Assembly (NCBI GenBank): GCA_017635595.1
Contig: JAGBLF010000023.1
Location: forward strand, 8,398 to 72,397
Direction: 5' to 3'
Source: Alphaproteobacteria bacterium
GTDB lineage: Bacteria > Pseudomonadota > Alphaproteobacteria > RF32 > CAG-239
Length of the DNA: 64,000 nucleotides
Every line of letters begins with the position of its first letter. Position 1 is the first letter of the stretch. The position numbers and the translations under genes were made by a program. Shown piece by piece: positions 3,478-64,000 of the stretch. Below the pieces are notes generated by a model, which worked only from the letters and a program-made list of their open reading frames with translations, did no database searches and was not told the DNA's origin.

Positions 3478-6150
3478 TTAATAATCACTTCTGCCGCCGC
3501 TCTTAGGCGTAACAACTCTGGTTGTACCGGAAAGAGGTTTGGTTTCACCAGGCTTCGTACCTTGAAGCGACTTCGGATCATTTACATCGTTAGAGCCATG
3601 ATCCGTTGCGGTTGTACCGAGAGATATGTTATCCGTGACTTCAGCCTGATCAGCCTGAGCATCAACAGCTGTAACTTTTTCAACCTTAACATGATCAAAC
3701 GAGCCATCTTCACGAACAGTAGTAGCCGGCGGTTGGTCAGTAACATCCGGTGCCTTTGGAGCAATAGGTTTACCCCTGATGAAATGAATATCATCGCAAC
3801 CATCACGATCCATAACATTGTTAGTTACACCAATATTCCAGCCCTCACCTTTATACTGACCATTAGACATGGTTTCATCAAAGAACTGTTTGATTCTGGT
3901 TCCATCAACCTCTTTAACAGCTTTACCGCAGTTAATCATTTTATAAAGGTCTTGGAACGCTTTAACGGTTTTTTCATCACCATGACAACGCGGCAAGCAT
4001 TCGACACCAGGTTCTACCGGTTTTGTCATCCCTTTATCATAGAAAAATTCGTGATTTCCGTTAGCATAAACTTCCTGACCATTCGGGTCCCAAAAACGTG
4101 CGATTAATCCGCCATGGCCATCCGGTCTGGCTTTAGCTAAAGACAAAATACGAGATGCTTCCCACATAGTCTCTTCCGTAGTCATCGGCGATCCATCCGG
4201 ATGTACAAAGAGTTCCGGATGAGCTGCCTGAGCATTAGCTGCATTCAGATAGGTTTCATCAAAATTACCGATATGCATCGGCGTAACTTCGGTATGAATA
4301 TATTCCCATTGTCTATGCGTAATTCCCATCGCTGCCTTATCATATTCGGTCGGGATGGCGACAGAAGAAGGTTCCGGCGCAACTTCTGCACCAACAACCG
4401 GCGCATCTGTAACGTTACCAGCCGTACCATAATCATGCATCCACGGCGCCGTATCATTTTGATGGTTTTGCAGATAGTCGGCCAAAGTATACTCACCATT
4501 ATGCATGAACGGTCCATGATTGCCGGTCGGTGCAACATCGGCCATTCCCGGATGAGCAGAAGCATTAGCTACAGCGCCTGAAACGGCAAACGCTTCTACT
4601 GCACTGGTCAACAAAGCCGTCCAAGCTAAGCCGGTCTTAGCACCTTCCAATCTGGCCTTGTCTTCTGCACTTTGTGTTTTCTCAAACCGTTTTTCGGCCT
4701 TACGCTTGTTGTAATATGCATTGGCATTTCCGCCTAAAACACGTACTAAACCGGTACCAAAACGTGCCATAGACATAGCATTGGTTGCAGCTGCTTCTGC
4801 AGTCTTTGTGCCGATATTGGCAGCACCAATTACTGACGGTGCTAAAGCCCCGAGAATGCCGGCGCAAGCAACACTGATACCTGTTGAAAACTTCCAACTG
4901 TCATTAAAGTCTTTCTTTTCCTCCGGATTGGCATGAATATCCATCCAAGCCTTTTTCATACCTTTCCAACCTTTCCATTCATTTTTCAATGCAGGATAAT
5001 AAGATTGTTCAAATTCCGTATTCAACTGAGCATTCAATTGATCGAAAGCCTTCGATTTTTTATTCTGCAAAGTCTTTAACTCATTATCCGAGAACTGCTT
5101 AGATTTAATAAATTTTGCAAAAGCAACATCTTTACGCAACTCGGTATTACGTTTTCTGTTCAAATTCCACAACGGTGTAGAGGCTGCGGTATAAACAGCA
5201 TAGCCTGCAGCCGCACCCAAAGCAACCGGCGCCGAAGCAAACGCTGTTGCAGCCATCACGCCGGTAGTTACCGCCGTTGTAATCCATTGTGTCGGATTCG
5301 TTTTCATATCTTGAACCAAACCATCTTTCAATGCCTCACGATGCTCTTTATTGAACATAGTAATGAAACTCTTCAGCTTGTTCTTTATTTTATCCGCAGA
5401 CTTAGCTAAACCGCAATTTTTTAATTTGGCAATTTTATCTTTAATAGACAGAATTGAACTGGAGATAGCGTCGATAATGTGACCTTTTTTAATGGTAACT
5501 TTCGCACCGCTCATATATCTTTGAGCAGCCGCATGTGACTTCTTTGCCGCTGTCTTTTCATCGTCTTTCACATCTATTGCCGATGCAACGACTGCTGCTG
5601 CAGTTTTTGTATTGAAATATCGCTCAATATCATCCAACAGCGATTCTCTTTGTTCATCTTTGTTTTTACGCGAAAAATTCTTATCGTCTGCATACATTGC
5701 CCCAACTTCCTGCATGGAAATCGTCATTAAAGAAGACAATAATTTGTGAGAAGCCTCCGCTTCGACCTTTTCGCCGGCATCATCTACAATTTCAACCTGT
5801 TCATCAGCCTTTTGAACAATACCATCAAGATGCTTTTTCACTTCTTTTTCTTTATAGATACTGTCAATTGTATTCAAATTTTCAACAATTTGATTATCAA
5901 TCGCTTCAACAACTTCTTGATCGACAATCGTTTCATCCGGACGCAAAACATCTTGTCTGCTCTTATCCAACAGGATATCATAATCAAATTCAGATCCTGT
6001 CAGTTGCTTCCATTCGGCAGCTTTTTGCGAATATTCTTCAAAATTAAAATCCTGCTTGGCAATAACGTTTCTGAAATATTCCTTCAGGCGTTCCATTTGC
6101 AGTTTTGCTCTTTTTGCTTCTAACTCACTGTTAGTTGTTTTATTTACCAT
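3478..6150 (-). CDS. Large (~890 aa) hypothetical protein: N-terminal coiled-coil/acidic region, two glycine-zipper hydrophobic segments, and a Cys/His-containing C-terminal domain of unknown function; candidate secreted effector or toxin
   Basis: Start assigned to the ATG at 6150 (MVNKTTNSELEA), preceded by AAAAGGAG. Hydrophobic segments WITTAVTTGVMAATAFASAPVALGAAAGYAVY and ISVACAGILGALAPSVIGAANIG. C-terminal ~350 aa has no recognisable family motif (CLPRCHGDEK, HGGLIARFWDPNGQEVY). Confidence 0.5.
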   Translation of the reverse strand: MVNKTTNSELEAKRAKLQMERLKEYFRNVIAKQDFNFEEYSQKAAEWKQLTGSEFDYDILLDKSRQDVLRPDETIVDQEVVEAIDNQIVENLNTIDSIYKEKEVKKHLDGIVQKADEQVEIVDDAGEKVEAEASHKLLSSLMTISMQEVGAMYADDKNFSRKNKDEQRESLLDDIERYFNTKTAAAVVASAIDVKDDEKTAAKKSHAAAQRYMSGAKVTIKKGHIIDAISSSILSIKDKIAKLKNCGLAKSADKIKNKLKSFITMFNKEHREALKDGLVQDMKTNPTQWITTAVTTGVMAATAFASAPVALGAAAGYAVYTAASTPLWNLNRKRNTELRKDVAFAKFIKSKQFSDNELKTLQNKKSKAFDQLNAQLNTEFEQSYYPALKNEWKGWKGMKKAWMDIHANPEEKKDFNDSWKFSTGISVACAGILGALAPSVIGAANIGTKTAEAAATNAMSMARFGTGLVRVLGGNANAYYNKRKAEKRFEKTQSAEDKARLEGAKTGLAWTALLTSAVEAFAVSGAVANASAHPGMADVAPTGNHGPFMHNGEYTLADYLQNHQNDTAPWMHDYGTAGNVTDAPVVGAEVAPEPSSVAIPTEYDKAAMGITHRQWEYIHTEVTPMHIGNFDETYLNAANAQAAHPELFVHPDGSPMTTEETMWEASRILSLAKARPDGHGGLIARFWDPNGQEVYANGNHEFFYDKGMTKPVEPGVECLPRCHGDEKTVKAFQDLYKMINCGKAVKEVDGTRIKQFFDETMSNGQYKGEGWNIGVTNNVMDRDGCDDIHFIRGKPIAPKAPDVTDQPPATTVREDGSFDHVKVEKVTAVDAQADQAEVTDNISLGTTATDHGSNDVNDPKSLQGTKPGETKPLSGTTRVVTPKSGGRSDY

Positions 6151-7506: not shown

Positions 7507-8712
7507 ATGTTACCTTTACTCTCGGTAAAGGAGAGGATTGTGCTTATTCGAAAGTTTAACAGCATAAAATACATTTTTTCGACCATTCGCGGTTCTTTTA
7601 TACCGTCAATGTTGCTTTTGAGTACATTGGTATTTTTTTATGCACAACAACCTTTTGAATTTCCGTCGGCAGCACTGTTGCATTATTTGTTTTTGGGTAT
7701 ATCGTGTTTCTCGTTGACTTTACTGTATACAGCCAATCAGGCTAAACCTTTTTTCACAATTTTACTCTCTTTAACGGCCTATCTGATTATCAATCACTTA
7801 AAAATGCAATACGGAGTTGCTTTTACCGCAACACCGGAATTTCAATGTTTATGTTTTGCCTTACCGATTAATCTGTTTATTTTACACATGTTACCGCAAA
7901 CAAAACTGTCTGCCGATGCCGGAAAATATACATTGTTGGTTCTGTTGGCCGAGGCGACCTTTTTACAAAACACCTGCGGTCACATGGCGCAGATACCTTA
8001 CATTGAAATCACATTGGAAGCCATACCTTTACAAGCCGGTGCCGTTTGGTGTGTATTCTTATTTTTAATTTTAATCACCGTTTGTTTAAAAAATACAGTG
8101 CTCAACACCGGGCAGTTTTATGCCGGTATTTGTATTATGATGGAATTAATTTATGCCGATTCGACATCCGGCTTGGTGGCATTTTCTTTCGGCTCGGCAC
8201 TGATTCTGCTGTCCGCGGTTATTATAGACCTTTACAAGCGCTATCATTATGACCATCTGGAATTTGTCGGCAGTAAAAATGCTTATTTATCACATGCAGG
8301 CTCAAAATTTCCGTTCAAATACACAATTGCACTGTTCAGCATAGATAACCGCGATAAATTGCTGAAAATTTACGGTGCCAAAAAAGTAGAATCTCTGGAA
8401 CAGATGGTTATTAATAAAATCCGTGAATTACCATACGAGTTGACATTTTATCGCTATAATGATGCCGAATTAATTATGGTTTTCAAAAACGAGGATGCCC
8501 GACACACATACGAATTTGCCGAGAATATCCGCCGCACGATTGCCTCATCAGAATTTATATTCACCTCTCGTAAAAGCTTAAAAATTACAATATCAATCTG
8601 TATTTCCGAAAAAACACGCAAAGACTTGAACGCCTCGGAAGTTACCGACCGCGCTCATAATGCTTTGCATAAAAACTATCGATTTAATTGCAATATCACG
8701 ACAAAGGCTTAG
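7507..8712 (+). CDS. Multi-pass membrane protein with C-terminal degenerate GGDEF-like domain
   Basis: ~7 N-terminal hydrophobic helices. The C-terminal region resembles a diguanylate-cyclase fold, with RYNDAEL in place of RYGGEEF. Confidence 0.4.
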   Translation: MLPLLSVKERIVLIRKFNSIKYIFSTIRGSFIPSMLLLSTLVFFYAQQPFEFPSAALLHYLFLGISCFSLTLLYTANQAKPFFTILLSLTAYLIINHLKMQYGVAFTATPEFQCLCFALPINLFILHMLPQTKLSADAGKYTLLVLLAEATFLQNTCGHMAQIPYIEITLEAIPLQAGAVWCVFLFLILITVCLKNTVLNTGQFYAGICIMMELIYADSTSGLVAFSFGSALILLSAVIIDLYKRYHYDHLEFVGSKNAYLSHAGSKFPFKYTIALFSIDNRDKLLKIYGAKKVESLEQMVINKIRELPYELTFYRYNDAELIMVFKNEDARHTYEFAENIRRTIASSEFIFTSRKSLKITISICISEKTRKDLNASEVTDRAHNALHKNYRFNCNITTKA

Positions 8713-11560: not shown

Positions 11561-11859
11561 GACGACGTGTCACCCTACAATACCGCTGACCGACAATGCG
11601 TTTCCCATCTTTTAAGAATTTCCACACATCTTGCAACTCAATGCCGCCAAATCATGCGGTGTTAACCCTGTTTAAGCGAATTTTAAAAATAATTAACAAT
11701 TCCTTAAACATGGAGTCATATAGCACGGCTTTTTCAAAAAATCCAGTAAAAAGAGTCTTTTATTCCATATTTTAGCCGAAAAATTTGTGTAACTAATTGT
11801 TTTTCATACATTTATTAATTTAAAAAAAATCCGTTTTCAGAGTAACTTTATAATAAAAC

Positions 11860-11887
11860 TTGAAATTTCTTTGAAAACATATATAAT
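11860..11887 (+). promoter_or_regulatory. Sigma70-like promoter (TTGAAA-16-TATAAT) for ssrA
   Basis: -35 TTGAAA at 11860-11865, -10 TATAAT at 11882-11887, about 8 nt before the predicted tmRNA precursor start. Confidence 0.4.
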
Positions 11888-11894
11888 GTTTAAC

Positions 11895-12150
11895 GTCAAG
11901 TAATTGACTGTGACACCAGAGACCTTATGAAATAGGTACATTGGACCCGGGGGCAGTACCCGGCACCTCCACCATTTACGGGGGTGAGTCAGGTTTGACA
12001 GTGTATAGTAAAGATATGTGTTGTGTCCGGCAAGACACCACCGTTATCGGTTCAAAATAAATGAATGCAAATGATAATTTTGCACCGGTTGCCGTAGCTG
12101 CTTAAGCAAAAGCAACAAACTTTAATCCTTTGCGCTTTGGTTAGCACAAA
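11895..12150 (+). ncRNA. ssrA: Two-piece (circularly permuted) tmRNA gene: acceptor piece ending ...CACCUCCACCA (~11974), coding piece starting GGGGGUG (11980) with tag ORF 12067-12105
   Basis: ...CCGGCACCTCCACCA is followed 5 nt later by GGGGGTGAGTCAGGTTTGACAG, which resembles the tmRNA 5' end GGGGCUGAUUCUGGAUUCGAC. The two segments form the acceptor stem GGGGGUG/CACCUCC. The internal reading frame GCA AAT GAT AAT TTT GCA CCG GTT GCC GTA GCT GCT TAA gives ANDNFAPVAVAA*, a canonical alphaproteobacterial proteolysis tag. Confidence 0.7.
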
Positions 12151-12202
12151 GTGGGGAATGAGCCACCCAGCAACAGAACGGCTCATTTTACATACAGCGA
12201 GA

Positions 12203-24321: not shown

Positions 24322-25080
24322 ATGACAGAAAAAGTAAGTATCTTAATCACGGGCGCCTCATCGGGTATCGGTGAAGCTTTAGCTTTGTATTATGCAAAAA
24401 ACGGAGCAACCGATTTATTTTTAAGCGGCCGCAATGCCGAGCGTTTGGAACAGGTGGCCGAACGCTGCCGCCAAACCGGTGTGACTGTTTACCCGAAACA
24501 GATAAACGTAACTGACCGCGCCGCCATGTGTGAATGGATTGCGCAATGCGAAAAGACAGCTCCGCTGAATATTGTTTTTGCCAATGCCGGCGTTTCGACC
24601 GGTGAAGAAAGCACCGAAAATGCCTACAACACTTTTGAAACCAATGTTATGGGGGTTATTAACACAATTCACCCGGTTATGGATATCTTCAAAAGTCGGC
24701 AAGACGGCCGCAAAGTTATAGCCATAACTTCATCAATTGCCGGTTACCACGGTTTGCCGTCGTGTCCGTCATACAGCGCCACAAAAGCCTGCACCAAAGC
24801 TTATGGCGAAGCCTTACGCGGCAGTTTAAAACCTTTCGGAATTCAGGTCAGCGTTATTTGTCCGGGATTTGTTAAATCACGTATTACCGATAAAAACACT
24901 TGTCCGATGCCGTTTTTCATGTCGGCGGAAAAAGCGGCACAAATTATTGCCGAACGGATTGATAAGAATATCGGTCTGATAACTTTTCCGTGGCCGATGC
25001 GCTTAGGAGTCTGGGCACTTTCGATTTTGCCTAATCGATTGACCGATTGGATTTATGCTTCCTTACCGCATAAAGTATAA
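24322..25080 (+). CDS. Short-chain dehydrogenase/reductase (SDR) family oxidoreductase
   Basis: TGASSGIG Rossmann motif, NAG motif and YSATK catalytic motif. Confidence 0.8.
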   Translation: MTEKVSILITGASSGIGEALALYYAKNGATDLFLSGRNAERLEQVAERCRQTGVTVYPKQINVTDRAAMCEWIAQCEKTAPLNIVFANAGVSTGEESTENAYNTFETNVMGVINTIHPVMDIFKSRQDGRKVIAITSSIAGYHGLPSCPSYSATKACTKAYGEALRGSLKPFGIQVSVICPGFVKSRITDKNTCPMPFFMSAEKAAQIIAERIDKNIGLITFPWPMRLGVWALSILPNRLTDWIYASLPHKV

Positions 25081-25108
25081 AAAATGCCCGAGTTGTTCGG
25101 GCATTTTT
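25081..25108. terminator. Bidirectional Rho-independent terminator (AAAATGCCCGAGTTGTTCGGGCATTTTT)
   Basis: Perfect hairpin flanked by A and T runs, between the convergent SDR and 25116-25829 genes. Confidence 0.55.
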
Positions 25109-25115
25109 CAAAAAA

Positions 25116-34430: not shown

Positions 34431-34521
34431 TATTACTTTCGTCATATTTACATTATATTAAAAATATGGCACTATGTTTTATGTGATTATACATAACGAC
34501 TCTTATTTTGGAGAAAGACAA

Positions 34522-35487
34522 ATGTTAAATTTAACTAAGCAAGGTCTCTCGGCAGATTCTGAGGTTCTGAGCCTTAATTCAAATTCCGTTTTTGCTGATA
34601 ACAAAAAAAGTCATCCTTGCGAAAGCGAGGATCTCGACCGAATCATTTTAAGCAGCCGAGATTCTCGAGCCTGCGGCTCAAGAATGACAGGTAAAAATAT
34701 TGGCTCAAGAATGGCAGGTAAAAATATTGGCTCAAGAATGACAGTAAAATGTGAGAGCGGCCTTCTTTCGATATGTGCTGCAGATGCGCCGCAATTTTCG
34801 AGTGCCGTGTACAACAGAGGTACACAAGCGAGAAAGTTGCAAGCAGGTGCCACACAGAGCGGCCGCAGCATGATTGAAATGCTCGGTGTACTGGCCATTA
34901 TCGGTGTGCTGTCGGTGGGCGGTATTGCCGGCTATTCGAAAGCCATGATGCAATACAAAATAAACAAGACTGTCGATCAAATATCCCAAATTGTCGGTAA
35001 TGTTAGGACATTGTATGCAAGTCAAAAAAACTATAAAGGATTATCTTGTTCTAGTGAACCTACAAAATGTCATACGTTGATCAAAAAGGCACATCTTGTA
35101 CCGGATGAACTATGGAACAGTGATGGAACTAGCCTTGAAAATGCTTTTGGAGGGACATTAACGGTAAATGTCGGCTCAAAAAAATCATCTTATGATGACA
35201 AAGCTTTTGGGGTTGATTTATATAATCTTCCCGAAGAGGCATGTATGGCATTGTCTACTTATGACTGGGGCTCTGGTTCTTCTTCCGGTTTAATTGCAAT
35301 CAGTGTAAATCATGGAACTGTACTTGAAATAGATAGTTATTCTGTTGGTTGTGCAGGCACATCTTCTGATGGTAAAGCCATCGCCTGTCCGAATGGTGCA
35401 ACCGTTTCAATTCCTATGCCTATTAATATTGCAGCTACGGCTTGTCAAACAGGAGATAGTAATACAGTTTCACTTAAGTTCTATTAA
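34522..35487 (+). CDS. Membrane protein with type-IV-pilin-like N-terminal segment (G-RSMIEMLGVLAIIGVLSVGGIAGY, Glu at +5) and Cys-containing C-terminal domain; N-terminal region carries 9-aa tandem repeats. Alternative: processed prepilin starting at TTG 34837
   Basis: RBS GGAGAAAGACAAATG at 34522. The hydrophobic helix matches the prepilin methylation-motif spacing. The C-terminal Cys pairs resemble a pilin disulfide loop. The translation start is uncertain. Confidence 0.4.
   Translation: MLNLTKQGLSADSEVLSLNSNSVFADNKKSHPCESEDLDRIILSSRDSRACGSRMTGKNIGSRMAGKNIGSRMTVKCESGLLSICAADAPQFSSAVYNRGTQARKLQAGATQSGRSMIEMLGVLAIIGVLSVGGIAGYSKAMMQYKINKTVDQISQIVGNVRTLYASQKNYKGLSCSSEPTKCHTLIKKAHLVPDELWNSDGTSLENAFGGTLTVNVGSKKSSYDDKAFGVDLYNLPEEACMALSTYDWGSGSSSGLIAISVNHGTVLEIDSYSVGCAGTSSDGKAIACPNGATVSIPMPINIAATACQTGDSNTVSLKFY
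34675..34744 (+). repeat. 27-bp tandem repeat x2.6 (GGCTCAAGAATGRCAGGTAAAAATATT), in-frame (encodes GSRM[T/A]GKNI)
   Basis: Three near-identical adjacent units read directly from the sequence. Confidence 0.8.
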
Positions 35488-35508
35488 ACGGATTTATCTT
35501 TTATCAAA

Positions 35509-35535
35509 GCGCCGCCTGTAAAGGTGGCGTTTTTT
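35509..35535 (+). terminator. Putative terminator (GCGCCGCCTGTAAAGGTGGCGTTTTTT)
   Basis: Imperfect GC-rich stem followed by a T-run after the pilin-like gene. Confidence 0.4.
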
Positions 35536-35539
35536 AAAT

Positions 35540-35910
35540 TGTTGTCGTTTTGCAGTCAGTACAGTGTTGAAAAAAACTCGGATAATGTGTCTAGTACGAA
35601 GAAACCTCTCTTGCGCAGTGTACAAAACAGTACATAAGGCAACCGGCACGACACAAAAAAACTCGGATAGCATGCGTTAATACGACGTAAGCCTTTTCTC
35701 GCCGTGTACAAAATAGTACATAAGGCAACCGGCACGGCATAAAAAAACTCGGATAGCGTGCGTTAATACGACGTAAGCCTTTTCTCGCCGTGTACAAAAA
35801 GGGTACATAAGGCAACCGGCACGGCACAAAAAAACTCGGATAACGAGGCTAGTACGCAGAAACCTCTCTTGTGCAGTGTACACAAAGGTACATAAACAAG
35901 AGAGGTTTCA
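35540..35910. repeat. Composite tandem repeat array, ~86-bp period x4: conserved ~53-bp module (GTGTACAAAANAGTACATAAGGCAACCGGCACGRCAYAAAAAAACTCGGATA) alternating with two alternating ~33-bp intervening segments (A, B, B', A'); terminal unit forms a perfect 13-bp hairpin (GAAACCTCTCTTG...CAAGAGAGGTTTC)
   Basis: Read directly from the sequence. The ORF-track proteins 35591-35883 repeat internally because they translate this array. Confidence 0.8.
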
Positions 35911-35935
35911 AGTAATAGACCGTTAGACGAGTTTT

Positions 35936-36946
35936 TTAGAAGTGATCGTCGGAACGCTTGATCAATTCCTCAATATTCTCAGGCGGCCAACCCGGCGTTT
36001 CCATGCCTAAGTGAATACCCATCTTTGCCAAAACTTCTTTGATTTCGTTCAAAGATTTGCGACCGAAGTTCGGCGTACGAAGCATTTCGGCTTCTGTTTT
36101 TTGAACCAAATCACCGATATAAACGATATTATCGTTCTTCAAGCAGTTAGCTGAACGAACCGATAATTCAAGTTCATCAACCTTACGCAACAGGTTTTTG
36201 TTGAACGGTAATTCTTCGCGAACATCCTCGGTTTCACTTTCCGGTTCATCAAAGTTGATAAACGGTTTCAATTGGTCTTGCAAAATGCGAGCTGCATAAG
36301 CAACAGCATCTTCCGGCGTTACAACACCATTGGTTTCAACGACCATTGTTAATTTATCATAATCGGTAATTTGACCGACACGGGTATTTTCAACTTTGTA
36401 AGAAACCTTTTTAACCGGGGAATAAATCGCGTCAACGGCAATCAAGCCAATCGGAGAATCGGCTGACGTGCTGTTAGCGGCCGGAACATAACCTTTACCG
36501 GTTGTTACTGTTAATTCCATACGAATTTTTGCACCGGCATCCAACGTGCAGATGATATGATCCGGATTCATAATTTCAACATCATGACCGGTTTCAATCA
36601 TAGCAGCCGTAACCGTACAAGGACCTTCAGCCTTCAAGGTTAAAGTCTTTGTCATTTCGGTATGAACGGAAACTGCCAATTCCTTAATGTTCAAAACGAT
36701 ATCGGTAACATCTTCTCTGACGCCCGGAATAACGGAAAATTCGTGCAGGACACCGTCAATTTTAATAGCTGAAACAGCACCGCCTTGTAATGAAGATAAT
36801 AAAACTCTTCTCAAAGCATTACCTAAAGTAAGGCCAAAGCCTCTCTCTAAAGGTTCAACCACAATTTTAGCTTTATTCGAACCGTCTTCTTGAGACACAT
36901 CGAGCTTTGTTGGTTTAATAAGTTCTTGCCAATTCTTTTGAATCAC
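35936..36946 (-). CDS. rpoA: DNA-directed RNA polymerase subunit alpha
   Basis: Full RpoA NTD/CTD conservation ([17 protein letters not shown]...). The likely start is the internal GTG ([12 protein letters not shown]) preceded by AAAGGA. The ORF-track TTG extension adds 18 unsupported residues. Confidence 0.9.
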
Positions 36947-54255: not shown

Positions 54256-54570
54256 ATGAAAAAAATTTTACTTATTACCGCAATTTTAGCCCTCGGAGCC
54301 TGTTCTAATTTATCATCTTTTATGCCGTCATCATCAAGCAACGGAGAAACTTCCGGCGTTCGCGGCAAGATGCAGTCATGTATGTTAGCTGAAGCTCAAA
54401 GCCGTCTGCAAGCAGGTACATTGTTTAATGATACTGTTACGGCTACCGCAAAAGACATAGCCGGAACATGTGCTAAAAAATTGGCTCTGTCTTCTATGGG
54501 CATCAGCGAAGAAACTCAAAAGTCGGCCGAATCCATTATTACAAATTTGCGTAATATGTCGGCTCAATAG
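54256..54570 (+). CDS. Small lipoprotein (lipobox LALGAC)
   Basis: RBS AAGGAGCAAAAAATG. Signal peptide with lipobox Cys. Terminator follows. Confidence 0.5.
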   Translation: MKKILLITAILALGACSNLSSFMPSSSSNGETSGVRGKMQSCMLAEAQSRLQAGTLFNDTVTATAKDIAGTCAKKLALSSMGISEETQKSAESIITNLRNMSAQ

Positions 54571-54575
54571 TCATA

Positions 54576-54612
54576 ATACCGCATATAGCTAAGGCAATAT
54601 GCGGTATTATTA
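54576..54612 (+). terminator. Rho-independent terminator (ATACCGCATATAGCTAAGGCAATATGCGGTATTATT)
   Basis: 11-bp perfect stem. Confidence 0.5.
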
Positions 54613-54726
54613 TACCTATATACATATTATTAGATGTATTTTAAATATTTGATTTAAAAATAGTTGCTTTTATATATTTTCTGTTATATACTTTCTAAAT
54701 AACATAGGACTTTAGAAAGGAACTAA

Positions 54727-54997: not shown

Positions 54998-55100
54998 TTT
55001 TTCCCGTACATTACATTTCATTAAAATACTTCCGATTGGCATAATCGTCAATTGAAGAATATCTGCAACATTTTTGAACTTTACCATCCGGATACCGAGT

Positions 55101-55146
55101 AACAAAGAAACCTCTCTTATCGGCTGATAGGAGAGGTTTCTTTGTT
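55101..55146 (-). terminator. Long perfect hairpin (AACAAAGAAACCTCTC-TTATCGGCTGATAG-GAGAGGTTTCTTTGTT), terminator for the 55148-55549 gene; stem shares GAAACCTCTC with the 35.5-35.9 kb repeat units
   Basis: 16-bp perfect inverted repeat read directly from the sequence. Confidence 0.55.
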
Positions 55147-55147
55147 A

Positions 55148-55549
55148 TTATAAAGTTGTAACGGGAAGAATAAACAACATTCGACGACGTCCTTCTGCTT
55201 CTTCACCGCGCACCCAATATTCTCTGCTAAGGTTTCCGGTAACCAAACAGTCTCCGCGATCACATGCAAGCAATTGCATATTAACAGTTTCCAGATGACG
55301 TTCCAACATATCCAACTGTTTGCCTGTGGGGAGCGCATGCTTCAATTTTTCGCAAAAAGCCATGGCTGTTTCAAAGGTTACGGGATACCGTAGTAAAGAA
55401 TCTAAATCCAAGTAGAATCTTTTATTTAAGAGGATTCCTTTTTCCAATCCGTTTCGAGATGAAGATGAAAGCTCATTGTTTTTGAGCAAAAAACATCCCG
55501 CCATGCCGTTCTTGTCAATCGGCATTTTTTTAGATTTCGACTGTTTCAT
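55148..55549 (-). CDS. Hypothetical protein (133 aa)
   Basis: Intact ORF followed by a strong terminator. No recognisable motif. Confidence 0.4.
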   Translation of the reverse strand: MKQSKSKKMPIDKNGMAGCFLLKNNELSSSSRNGLEKGILLNKRFYLDLDSLLRYPVTFETAMAFCEKLKHALPTGKQLDMLERHLETVNMQLLACDRGDCLVTGNLSREYWVRGEEAEGRRRMLFILPVTTL

Positions 55550-63831: not shown

Positions 63832-63862
63832 ATAAGCACACAAACCATCTACTGAATCCATA

Positions 63863-63889
63863 AAAAAACTCCCGCAAAGGGAGTTTTTT
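63863..63889 (+). terminator. Rho-independent terminator (AAAAAACTCCCGCAAAGGGAGTTTTTT)
   Basis: Perfect hairpin plus T-run. Confidence 0.55.
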
Positions 63890-64000
63890 AATTCGTGTAA
63901 CATGATCAATTCTGCTGTCGCAACCAATTTCGGAAGGCTTCATCAGTCATGTCATCAAGATCAACACTGCTTCGGTGACCGATATCCGAACCCTCATCTG

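Follow-up and report, generated by a model that had tools for sequence, protein, structure and literature searches.

We report that the repetitive block adjoining the stop codon of rpoA in a 64,000-nt stretch of Alphaproteobacteria bacterium DNA (GTDB lineage RF32; CAG-239; assembly GCA_017635595.1, contig JAGBLF010000023.1; this whole stretch is hereafter called the window) is a tandem array made of one complete and three truncated copies of a long hairpin, and that this hairpin is a member of a dispersed family of palindromic mosaic repeats ~115 nt long. The reading we favour, to which we would give a probability of roughly 0.55, is that the array is an rpoA operon-end structure derived from this family, comparable to the REP/BIME, BOX and TRIT repeats, and that it is predicted to serve as a terminator and 3' hairpin.

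Four head-to-tail units of 85-87 bp each span window positions 35570-35937 (+), and the TAA of rpoA, which lies on the minus strand, is the final triplet of the array region. Tandem Repeats Finder returned a period of 86 with 3.2-3.8 copies and scores of 379-400 over 35570-35895, and a repeat finder placed four copies in the array at spacings of 86/87/85. The motif GTACATAAGGCAACCGGCACG occurs three times against an expectation of 0, AAAAAAACTCGGATA occurs four times, and the pattern GTGTACA-N5-7-GTACATAA has four matches in the array, again with none expected; the frequency of the motifs singled out in an initial annotation of this DNA was never reached by shuffled sequence. The ~86-bp tandem array proposed there is therefore real and far beyond chance, and the A-B-B'-A' order that it gave for the variable segments is correct. 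The same four-unit array was assembled in three independent ENA metagenomes with an identical RpoA (one of them with two single-nucleotide polymorphisms), and so is no assembly artefact. An exact-protein look-up of the rpoA product gave the Pfam domains RNA_pol_L, RNA_pol_A_bac and RNA_pol_A_CTD. The parts are as follows, bit scores being those of R1, a covariance model built for the hairpin and run over the window.

35936-36946, minus strand: rpoA, from the open reading frame (ORF) list, 336 amino acids from a GTG-type start (MIQKNWQ), with its stop codon TAA within the hairpin base.
35828-35937, minus strand: complete element (unit 4 plus right arm), a three-tier hairpin in the rpoA sense; 115.8 bits at 35823-35945(-).
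35741-35827, minus strand: unit 3, a B'-type half-unit, from the repeat finder and reading of the sequence.
35655-35740, minus strand: unit 2, a B-type half-unit with the stem arm GTAAGCCTTTTCTC.
35570-35654, minus strand: unit 1, an A-type distal half-unit; it consists of the outer arm, a stem arm of type A, the apical hairpin and, at 35638-35654, a 17-nt relic of the linker.
~35545-35569, minus strand: probable decayed remnant of a fifth unit, in which, on direct reading, gcagtcagtacagtgttg resembles GCAGTGTACA..CAGTACA with internal deletions.

Of the four units, the rpoA-proximal one alone is complete. It forms a ~115-nt hairpin with three tiers and about 45 bp, in which the outer stem pairs 35829-35845 with 35921-35937, the variable inner stem pairs 35859-35872 with 35896-35909 over a perfect 14 bp, and the apical stem pairs TGTAC (35877-35881) with GTACA (35888-35892). 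The base of the hairpin takes in the rpoA stop codon (35936-35938), the last two bases of which are paired inside the stem, and is flanked by A6 and T7. Read in the rpoA sense, the element runs UAA-AAAACUCGUCUAACGG..GAAACCUCUCUUGU-UUAUGUAC-loop-GUACAC-UGC-ACAAGAGAGGUUUC..CGUUAUCCGAG-U7, that is, stop codon and A-run, outer stem (CUCGUCUAACGG with CGUUAUCCGAG), middle stem, 14-bp inner stem, apical hairpin and U7. Its predicted folding energy is -46 kcal/mol (z -8.8) on the minus strand and -52.8 kcal/mol (z -10.3) on the plus strand. A simple terminator scan missed this hairpin because its stem and loop exceed the limits of the scan.

In each of the three other units just the distal half is present, comprising an outer arm, a single stem arm and the apical hairpin, and a 17-nt linker, GGCAACCGGCACGGCAC, takes the place of the complementary arm. 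Unit 1 thus lacks a complementary arm and is matched by R1 in its apical part only (26.7 bits), and the complement of the unit 2 arm is missing from the window array and present at two family loci elsewhere (L002 and L029). The initial annotation had spoken of several hairpin-forming units; only the last unit is one, since unit 2 on its own folds no better than its shuffles (z -0.5 and -1.3). This anatomy identifies the '33-bp segments' described there as the stem arms of two element types. The accompanying ~53-bp module is the apical hairpin together with the linker and the next outer arm, and its AAGGCAACCGGCACG part recurs in three units, the fourth having the complementary stem arm at that point. 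A perfect terminal hairpin was rightly recognized, its stem being 14 bp rather than 13, and the element extends to 35937 instead of ending at 35910.

Three family loci lie in the window, 2 in a related metagenome-assembled genome (MAG) and 37 in metagenome contigs. The two in the related MAG, CAMVHF01, were found by an exact 20-mer scan of species-representative genomes: one lies between nusG and ddl (L001; units C-B-C, with a terminal C hairpin), and the other is the orthologous rpoA locus (L002; units A-B-B, with a terminal B hairpin pairing GTAAGCCTTTTCTC with GAGAAAAGGCTTAC). The 37 came from a degenerate pattern scan. The motif is therefore not unique to this locus, and the likeness to REP- or MITE-type repeats that had been suggested for it holds in the sense of a dispersed, hairpin-forming intergenic repeat family. 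Within one assembly, six copies stand behind six different genes at 90-97% identity. On the window plus strand the architecture of the family can be written (L-loop-K)n-L-loop-R, with n = 0-3 or more.

It is base pairing that is kept across these copies. More than 10 unrelated inner-stem sequences occur, each with its exact complement, so that the inner stem is free in sequence and always complementary; the apical hairpin UUAUGUAC-loop-GUACAC is conserved, and where its dyad TGTAC/GTACA becomes TGTAG/CTACA the pairing is retained. In alignments of complete hairpins, compensatory double changes were seen in 31/40 stem pairs (25/34 in another such alignment), paired cells amounted to 96.2% against 30-53% with the partners slid, and the observed covariation was reached by 0/500 shuffles. 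The outer arms, which form terminal inverted repeats of 15-17 nt and are 87-88% complementary, also covary across copies. Rfam scans gave nothing in the array at gathering thresholds and only sub-threshold chance matches when run permissively, and thus no family match. Neither BLAST against plasmids and phages nor exact-motif scans of viral contigs revealed any similarity to the element, which accordingly matches no known insertion sequence (IS) or MITE end in those collections.

Besides the array, the window holds two further copies:

43226-43348, minus strand: second complete copy, diverged, in the rpmD-rplO spacer; 84.2 bits.
34750-34875, minus strand: third copy, degenerate, overlapping the leader region of a pilin-like ORF; 39.9 bits, E ~5e-8.

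The copy in the rpmD-rplO spacer has the rpmD TAA at its base and a T5 run after it, and folds with -41.8 and -50.5 kcal/mol (z -6.4 and -7.2). Weak R1 matches at 42674-42724, 55100-55149, 54566-54619, 25073-25113 and 63855-63895, one of them just after rplO, are short hairpins with A-run and T-run flanks and look like ordinary bidirectional-type terminators. A second hairpin family, with the stem AAGAGAGAAAATT paired with AATTTTCTCTCTT and the apex CACGTAC..GTACG, is interleaved in some mosaic arrays (L030 ~1150-1230, L034 ~8380-8480, L049-L053 3510-4200), and in L049 and L051-L053 it is this type, not the standard one, that adjoins the rpoA stop codon.

The family is anchored on stop codons. 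In 25/34 strong copies the stop codon of a long same-sense ORF falls a few nucleotides at most from the outer stem, or within the stem itself, with junctions of the forms TAA-AAAACTCG, TAG-AAAACTCG and TGA TG-AAACTCG, and the orientation of the element relative to the adjoining gene is invariant across copies. The opposite end of the element is never less than 57 nt from a convergent ORF. The adjoining genes are housekeeping genes, many at classical operon ends or highly expressed: rpoA, rpoC (twice), rpsA, dnaK (twice), nusG and rpmD, and further rbfA, thyA, ileS, fabH, a pal/ompA-type gene, gcrA, lptF/G, mscS, a cyclophilin gene, kinases and regulators. Of the neighbours on the downstream side, 14 are convergent and 14 co-directional, and all but one of the latter are at least 220 nt away.

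The rpoA site itself could be followed through RpoA homologues of 89-95% identity from many MAGs of uncultured Alphaproteobacteria, including human-gut (Hadza) samples. A hairpin of the family stands directly after the rpoA TAA in every related clade examined, with a stem that differs from clade to clade and is compensated in each. It is followed by a T5-T7 run in the window and in L002, L043, L050 and L055; the run is missing at the rpoA site in L054 and in a degenerate copy, L045. Strains with identical RpoA have post-rpoA spacers of 327, 493, 586, 694 and 711 nt, made up of different numbers of units, a copy-number variation like that of variable-number tandem repeats that is seen in L049-L053 and L054-L058; L057, for example, carries more half-units than its sister strains. 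The architecture of the half-units varies between clades, and it is always the distal half, T-run included, that is repeated. With the proximal hairpin kept and the half-units variable, the complete stop-codon-proximal hairpin is the conserved feature and the tandem part a fast-evolving by-product.

The absence of rplQ from the window, remarked on in the initial annotation, was borne out to the extent that tblastn with an E. coli L17 query matched nothing in the window or in the family loci. The array had further been placed in the position that rplQ normally occupies, which is apt as a mark of the operon end only, as rplQ does not follow rpoA in any of the five related clades examined.

In other genomes the linker, K, is a canonical terminator-like hairpin, GCCGGUUGCAGCAAUAAGCAGCCGGU, followed by UUUUC (in DNA, GCCGGTTGCAGCAATAAGCAGCCGGT then TTTTC), on the gene-sense strand only; this hairpin includes one G.U pair, which would be an A.C mismatch on the other strand. 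This terminator module, named K', was noted in L010 (7431-7563) and L026 (492-725) as a GC hairpin with a U5 run, once per unit on the gene-sense strand. The window linker has GCAACCGGCAC in common with K' and, to judge by comparison with L026, looks like a K' that has lost 19 nt between CTTA repeats. Ancestrally, then, each array was a series of terminator modules pointing the same way as the upstream gene.

The complete hairpin at rpoA has the features expected of an intrinsic terminator, a stable RNA hairpin and a U-rich tract at the end of a transcription unit: U7 follows the stem on the rpoA strand and U6 on the other, and the next gene is convergent. Judged from these features, the most likely role of the hairpin, with its A6 and T7, is that of an intrinsic terminator working in both directions and of a barrier to 3' exonucleases. 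The functional part would be the rpoA-proximal complete element, whose stable hairpin and U-run, once in the transcript, would stop RNA polymerase, block 3'-5' exonucleases, or both. Flanked as it is by both A6 and T7, it would act in the same way on transcription arriving from the converging pilin-like gene, and so may be a bidirectional insulator. We infer such an action at the RNA level, as termination or stabilization, and a role as structured 3' hairpin of the rpoA transcript is plausible. The three other 86-bp units would be truncated copies, each a distal hairpin half with a decayed remnant of the terminator module K', without independent structure and most likely produced by unequal recombination or gene conversion among family copies. 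Two observations support this origin: a whole array has been replaced at one locus (C-B-C in L001, A-B-A in L039), and in L005, L012, L026 and L033 the stretch from the stop codon to the complete hairpin contains duplicated relics of the proximal outer arm (..TAGACGAGTTT..TAGACGAGTTT..), which suggests repeated replacement at the proximal end too. Both the recombinational origin and the mode in which the family has spread are inferred.

Several observations weigh against the terminator reading. A T-run of at least 6 directly after the stem is present in only about a quarter to a third of the copies (~8/33), and the commonest subfamily has TTTCTGAG there (13/33), with CCCTTGG in four; many of the copies with TTTCTGAG are followed by a separate small terminator-like hairpin, K'. 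The copy between rpmD and rplO is within an operon and ends 36 nt short of the rplO start, a position that fits an attenuator or stabilizer better than a full terminator. G.U and A.C cells number 14 and 10, which carries no strand signal and so lends no support to selection on one strand at the RNA level. The strong conservation of apical and internal-loop sequences suggests recognition by a protein, be it a transposase or an RNA-binding factor, and a plain terminator would not need conserved loops. The stem, finally, has an AU-rich base and is far longer than that of ordinary intrinsic terminators.

In its logic, the nearest published analogue is TRIT, the Tuberculosis Rho-independent terminator, which is reported only from Mycobacterium, where 147 conserved palindromic copies, mostly bidirectional, show a very narrow distribution at the stop codon and overlap the end of the coding sequence; a protein factor recognizing the conserved stem was considered possible (PMC3152330, the RNIE paper). 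The family in the window shares with TRIT a multi-copy conserved palindrome placed narrowly at stop codons, a likeness of kind only, since the sequences are unrelated and TRIT is a short single hairpin without the three-tier ~115-nt fold, the freely varying inner stem and the tandem half-unit arrays found here. In the BOX elements of Streptococcus (boxA-(boxB)n-boxC) the end modules pair and the internal module is tandemly repeated in variable number; repeats of this type vary in copy number between strains and are over-represented between convergent genes, and the same study notes that the SPRITE repeat resembles a Rho-independent terminator and mentions NIME and Correia elements (PMC3049150). 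Pairing ends and variable tandem internal modules are found in our family as well, by analogy and without any sequence relationship. It differs in that a hairpin half-copy with its linker is repeated, not a separate boxB, in its anchoring on the stop codon in fixed orientation, and in its dissimilar sequences.

With the REP sequences of enterobacteria and their BIME mosaics the family shares extragenic palindromes in 3' untranslated regions combined with linker motifs. REPs are 20-40 nt long, and have a conserved GTAG tetranucleotide at the 5' side; within BIMEs their orientation alternates, and RAYT transposases are associated with them. The element described here measures ~110-120 nt in three tiers and has no conserved GTAG 5' of the hairpin, and neither alternating orientation nor, among the ~530 ORFs of the locus sequences, a RAYT link was seen. 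The roles documented for REPs include a barrier to 3'-5' exonucleases and termination and, where the REP lies no more than 15 nt from the stop codon, ribosome stalling with trans-translation (PMC5082802). Membership in TRIT, BOX or REP thus fails on sequence and on defining details, and the family is a new one of a familiar class.

A different account would make the family purely selfish: a non-autonomous MITE- or REP-like mobile element whose transposase, for example of the HUH/Y1 type acting on single-stranded hairpins, recognizes the folded DNA, so that effects on transcripts are incidental and arrays result when several left ends are used with one right end. Such an account would sit well with near-identical copies behind unrelated genes in one genome, with the terminal inverted repeats, with loops conserved in sequence over a stem that needs only to pair, with the lack of a G.U over A.C strand bias, as a constraint at the DNA level predicts, and with the replaced array and the strain-to-strain variation in copy number. 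It has to contend with several negatives. The element has terminal inverted repeats as a MITE should, yet direct repeats marking a target-site duplication were not seen at single-copy insertions, nor was similarity to IS ends found, and the plasmid, phage and viral collections were silent. Clustering of ~530 ORFs from 40 sources, taken from the locus sequences, yielded housekeeping and pilin-like families only, with no recurrent transposase- or recombinase-like ORF, RAYT included, in the 39 loci. The same orthologous site after rpoA is occupied across clades of 89-95% RpoA identity, and strict orientation and stop-codon anchoring would require an additional explanation. We regard a purely selfish element as distinctly less probable than an operon-end terminator; nonetheless the weak U-runs, the intra-operonic copy, the null strand signal and the conserved loops keep it a serious rival, and one that is partly compatible with the terminator reading.

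The converging neighbour of the array invites a further reading.

34870-35487, plus strand: type IV pilin-like gene, convergent with rpoA (GRS-MIEMLGVLAIIGVLS...); 34870 marks where the mature part begins, and which start codon is the true one is uncertain.

The region of this gene is 34474-35487; the Pfam families Bundlin and PilS match the called gene, which has its own small terminator hairpin at 35508-35535, and sub-threshold matches to terminator-bearing small RNA (sRNA) models cover 35448-35541(+). It belongs to a multigene pilin-like family (GRS-M(I/V)EMLGVLAIIGVLS, Bundlin/PilS) present in L003, L012, L022, L030, L033, L034, L036 and L049-L058, and such genes are found beside arrays far more frequently than expected. 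A 27-bp tandem repeat, GGCTCAAGAATGACAGGTAAAAATATT, occurs 2.8 times at window 34675-34749, and its 'cap' motif GG(C/T)C(A/T)AG(A/G)ATGAC is also found at the distal array ends of other loci (L001 3408-3455, L029 ~274-320, L013, L014 and L016). In L012, L022, L030 and L034 the cap motif supplies the ATG and leader start (MTG..GRS-MIEML) of pilin-like genes, and in the window the pilin-like ORF continues the frame of this motif's ATG across the degenerate hairpin copy. More GC-rich palindromes, CCAAGGCACCACCCTCTCCC..GGGGCGAGGG..CCCTTGGTGCC and ccaccccgccttcggcacccctccatagaggggaa, were noticed upstream of pilin-like genes (L012 ~300-400, L022, L030 ~400-500, L054-L058 ~3700-3950), and these are at times translated by gene callers as long additions to the N-terminus of the pilin-like genes.

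It may be, then, that the arrays are recombination hotspots or capture sites for pilin-like cassettes, in the manner of NIME elements or integron attC sites, with half-units as the scars of insertion and excision. The sole pilin-like gene of the 64-kb window sits between the degenerate copy and the array; at the orthologous L002 the gene is gone and the array kept, and L043 has a different gene there. Pilin-like genes adjoin arrays in 11/37 metagenome loci and are the convergent neighbour in ~8-9 of the 14 convergent cases, and fragments of the pilin leader start (GGCCTAGGATGAC...) cap the distal ends of arrays that lack a pilin gene. Yet the majority of arrays have no pilin-like neighbour, the indel boundaries between the window and L002 do not fall cleanly at repeat-unit edges, no recombinase gene was seen near the arrays, and accessory genes and repeats may both simply accumulate in permissive convergent spacers.

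The models from other bacteria help little here. NIME, RIME and Correia elements of Neisseria and Rhizobium form mosaic intergenic arrays near surface-protein and pilin loci, give hairpins when transcribed and are thought to be recombination substrates; NIMEs consist of dRS3 20-mers around RS units, and Correia elements have 26-bp terminal inverted repeats with a TA duplication. None of these is anchored on stop codons or similar in sequence to our family. An attC site resembles the element as an imperfect palindrome just 3' of a gene, in fixed orientation, with conserved outer boxes and a paired centre free in sequence. Of the attC consensus boxes R'' (RYYYAAC) and R' (GTTRRRY), the first fits the 5' arm GTCTAAC and the second fails on the 3' outer arm GTTATCC; moreover, the adjoining genes are core housekeeping genes rather than cassettes, the half-units are not attC-like, and no integron integrase was seen in the loci. 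The association with pilin genes could reflect recombination at the repeats, the evidence being circumstantial, and we consider a pilin-cassette site improbable. The same low standing goes to its combination with mobility, namely a stop-codon-anchored mobile module, targeted strand-specifically, that is also a site of capture, exchange and loss of pilin cassettes beside operon ends, with half-units as an ordered record of those events.

Very unlikely, in our view, is an array of sRNA genes, or an sRNA derived from the 3' untranslated region with repeated seed modules. Repeated units downstream of a highly expressed gene, each closed in related genomes by a terminator-like hairpin in the same sense, would suit it, and a stable 3' hairpin fragment could persist in the cell. 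A promoter scan, however, found none in the array or in related arrays, which argues against sRNA genes and against an operator; the internal units are unstructured, differ in architecture between clades and vary in number among strains with identical RpoA, and no Rfam family matches. From this pattern an sRNA role for the internal units seems unlikely.

Least credible is the operator, iteron, origin or partition array for a dimeric DNA-binding protein at TGTAC-N6-GTACA that had first been proposed: the short dyad does recur four times at a regular ~86-bp spacing, but in every copy it forms the apex of a ~45-bp hairpin with covariation in the remaining tiers, it changes in some copies with its pairing kept, single copies are scattered behind unrelated housekeeping genes in one orientation and touching the stop codon, and there is no promoter-like site nearby and no replication or partition gene context. 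Four other candidates were rejected: nested insertion of element into element (no displaced right arms follow the terminal hairpin), a CRISPR array (the 'spacers' A, B, B' and A' recur and are stem arms, and the ORF list shows no cas context), a SECIS or read-through signal (the stops are mostly TAA, with some TAG and TGA) and a DNA-uptake sequence (the density is ~3 loci per 64 kb).

Some features of the surroundings may be recorded here. By composition the host genome is ~40% GC. The ribosomal-protein gene cluster is broken up in this lineage, with non-ribosomal ORFs between rplO and secY (window 41416-42661), and in L045-L048 rpsM is preceded, on the opposite strand, by a sufB-type gene with SufBD Pfam domains (L045 1-1429). 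A permuted two-piece alphaproteobacterial tmRNA gene is found at window 11856-12187 (Rfam RF01849, 206 bits).

The array thus accounts for the non-coding block after rpoA, which is neither a lost rplQ nor a regulatory operator, and introduces a new structured intergenic repeat family, with no earlier description, in a large clade of uncultured gut and rumen Alphaproteobacteria, where annotators can use it as a marker of operon ends in MAGs. Its copy-number polymorphism makes it a possible strain-typing locus, and its frequent pilin-like neighbours offer a starting point for the study of surface-protein variation in this clade. A stop codon embedded in the hairpin base, known from the mycobacterial TRIT, is now seen in an unrelated phylum-level lineage, so that such 'branded' terminators may be a recurrent solution or a recurrent genomic parasite, and the factor that would recognize them becomes testable in a second system.

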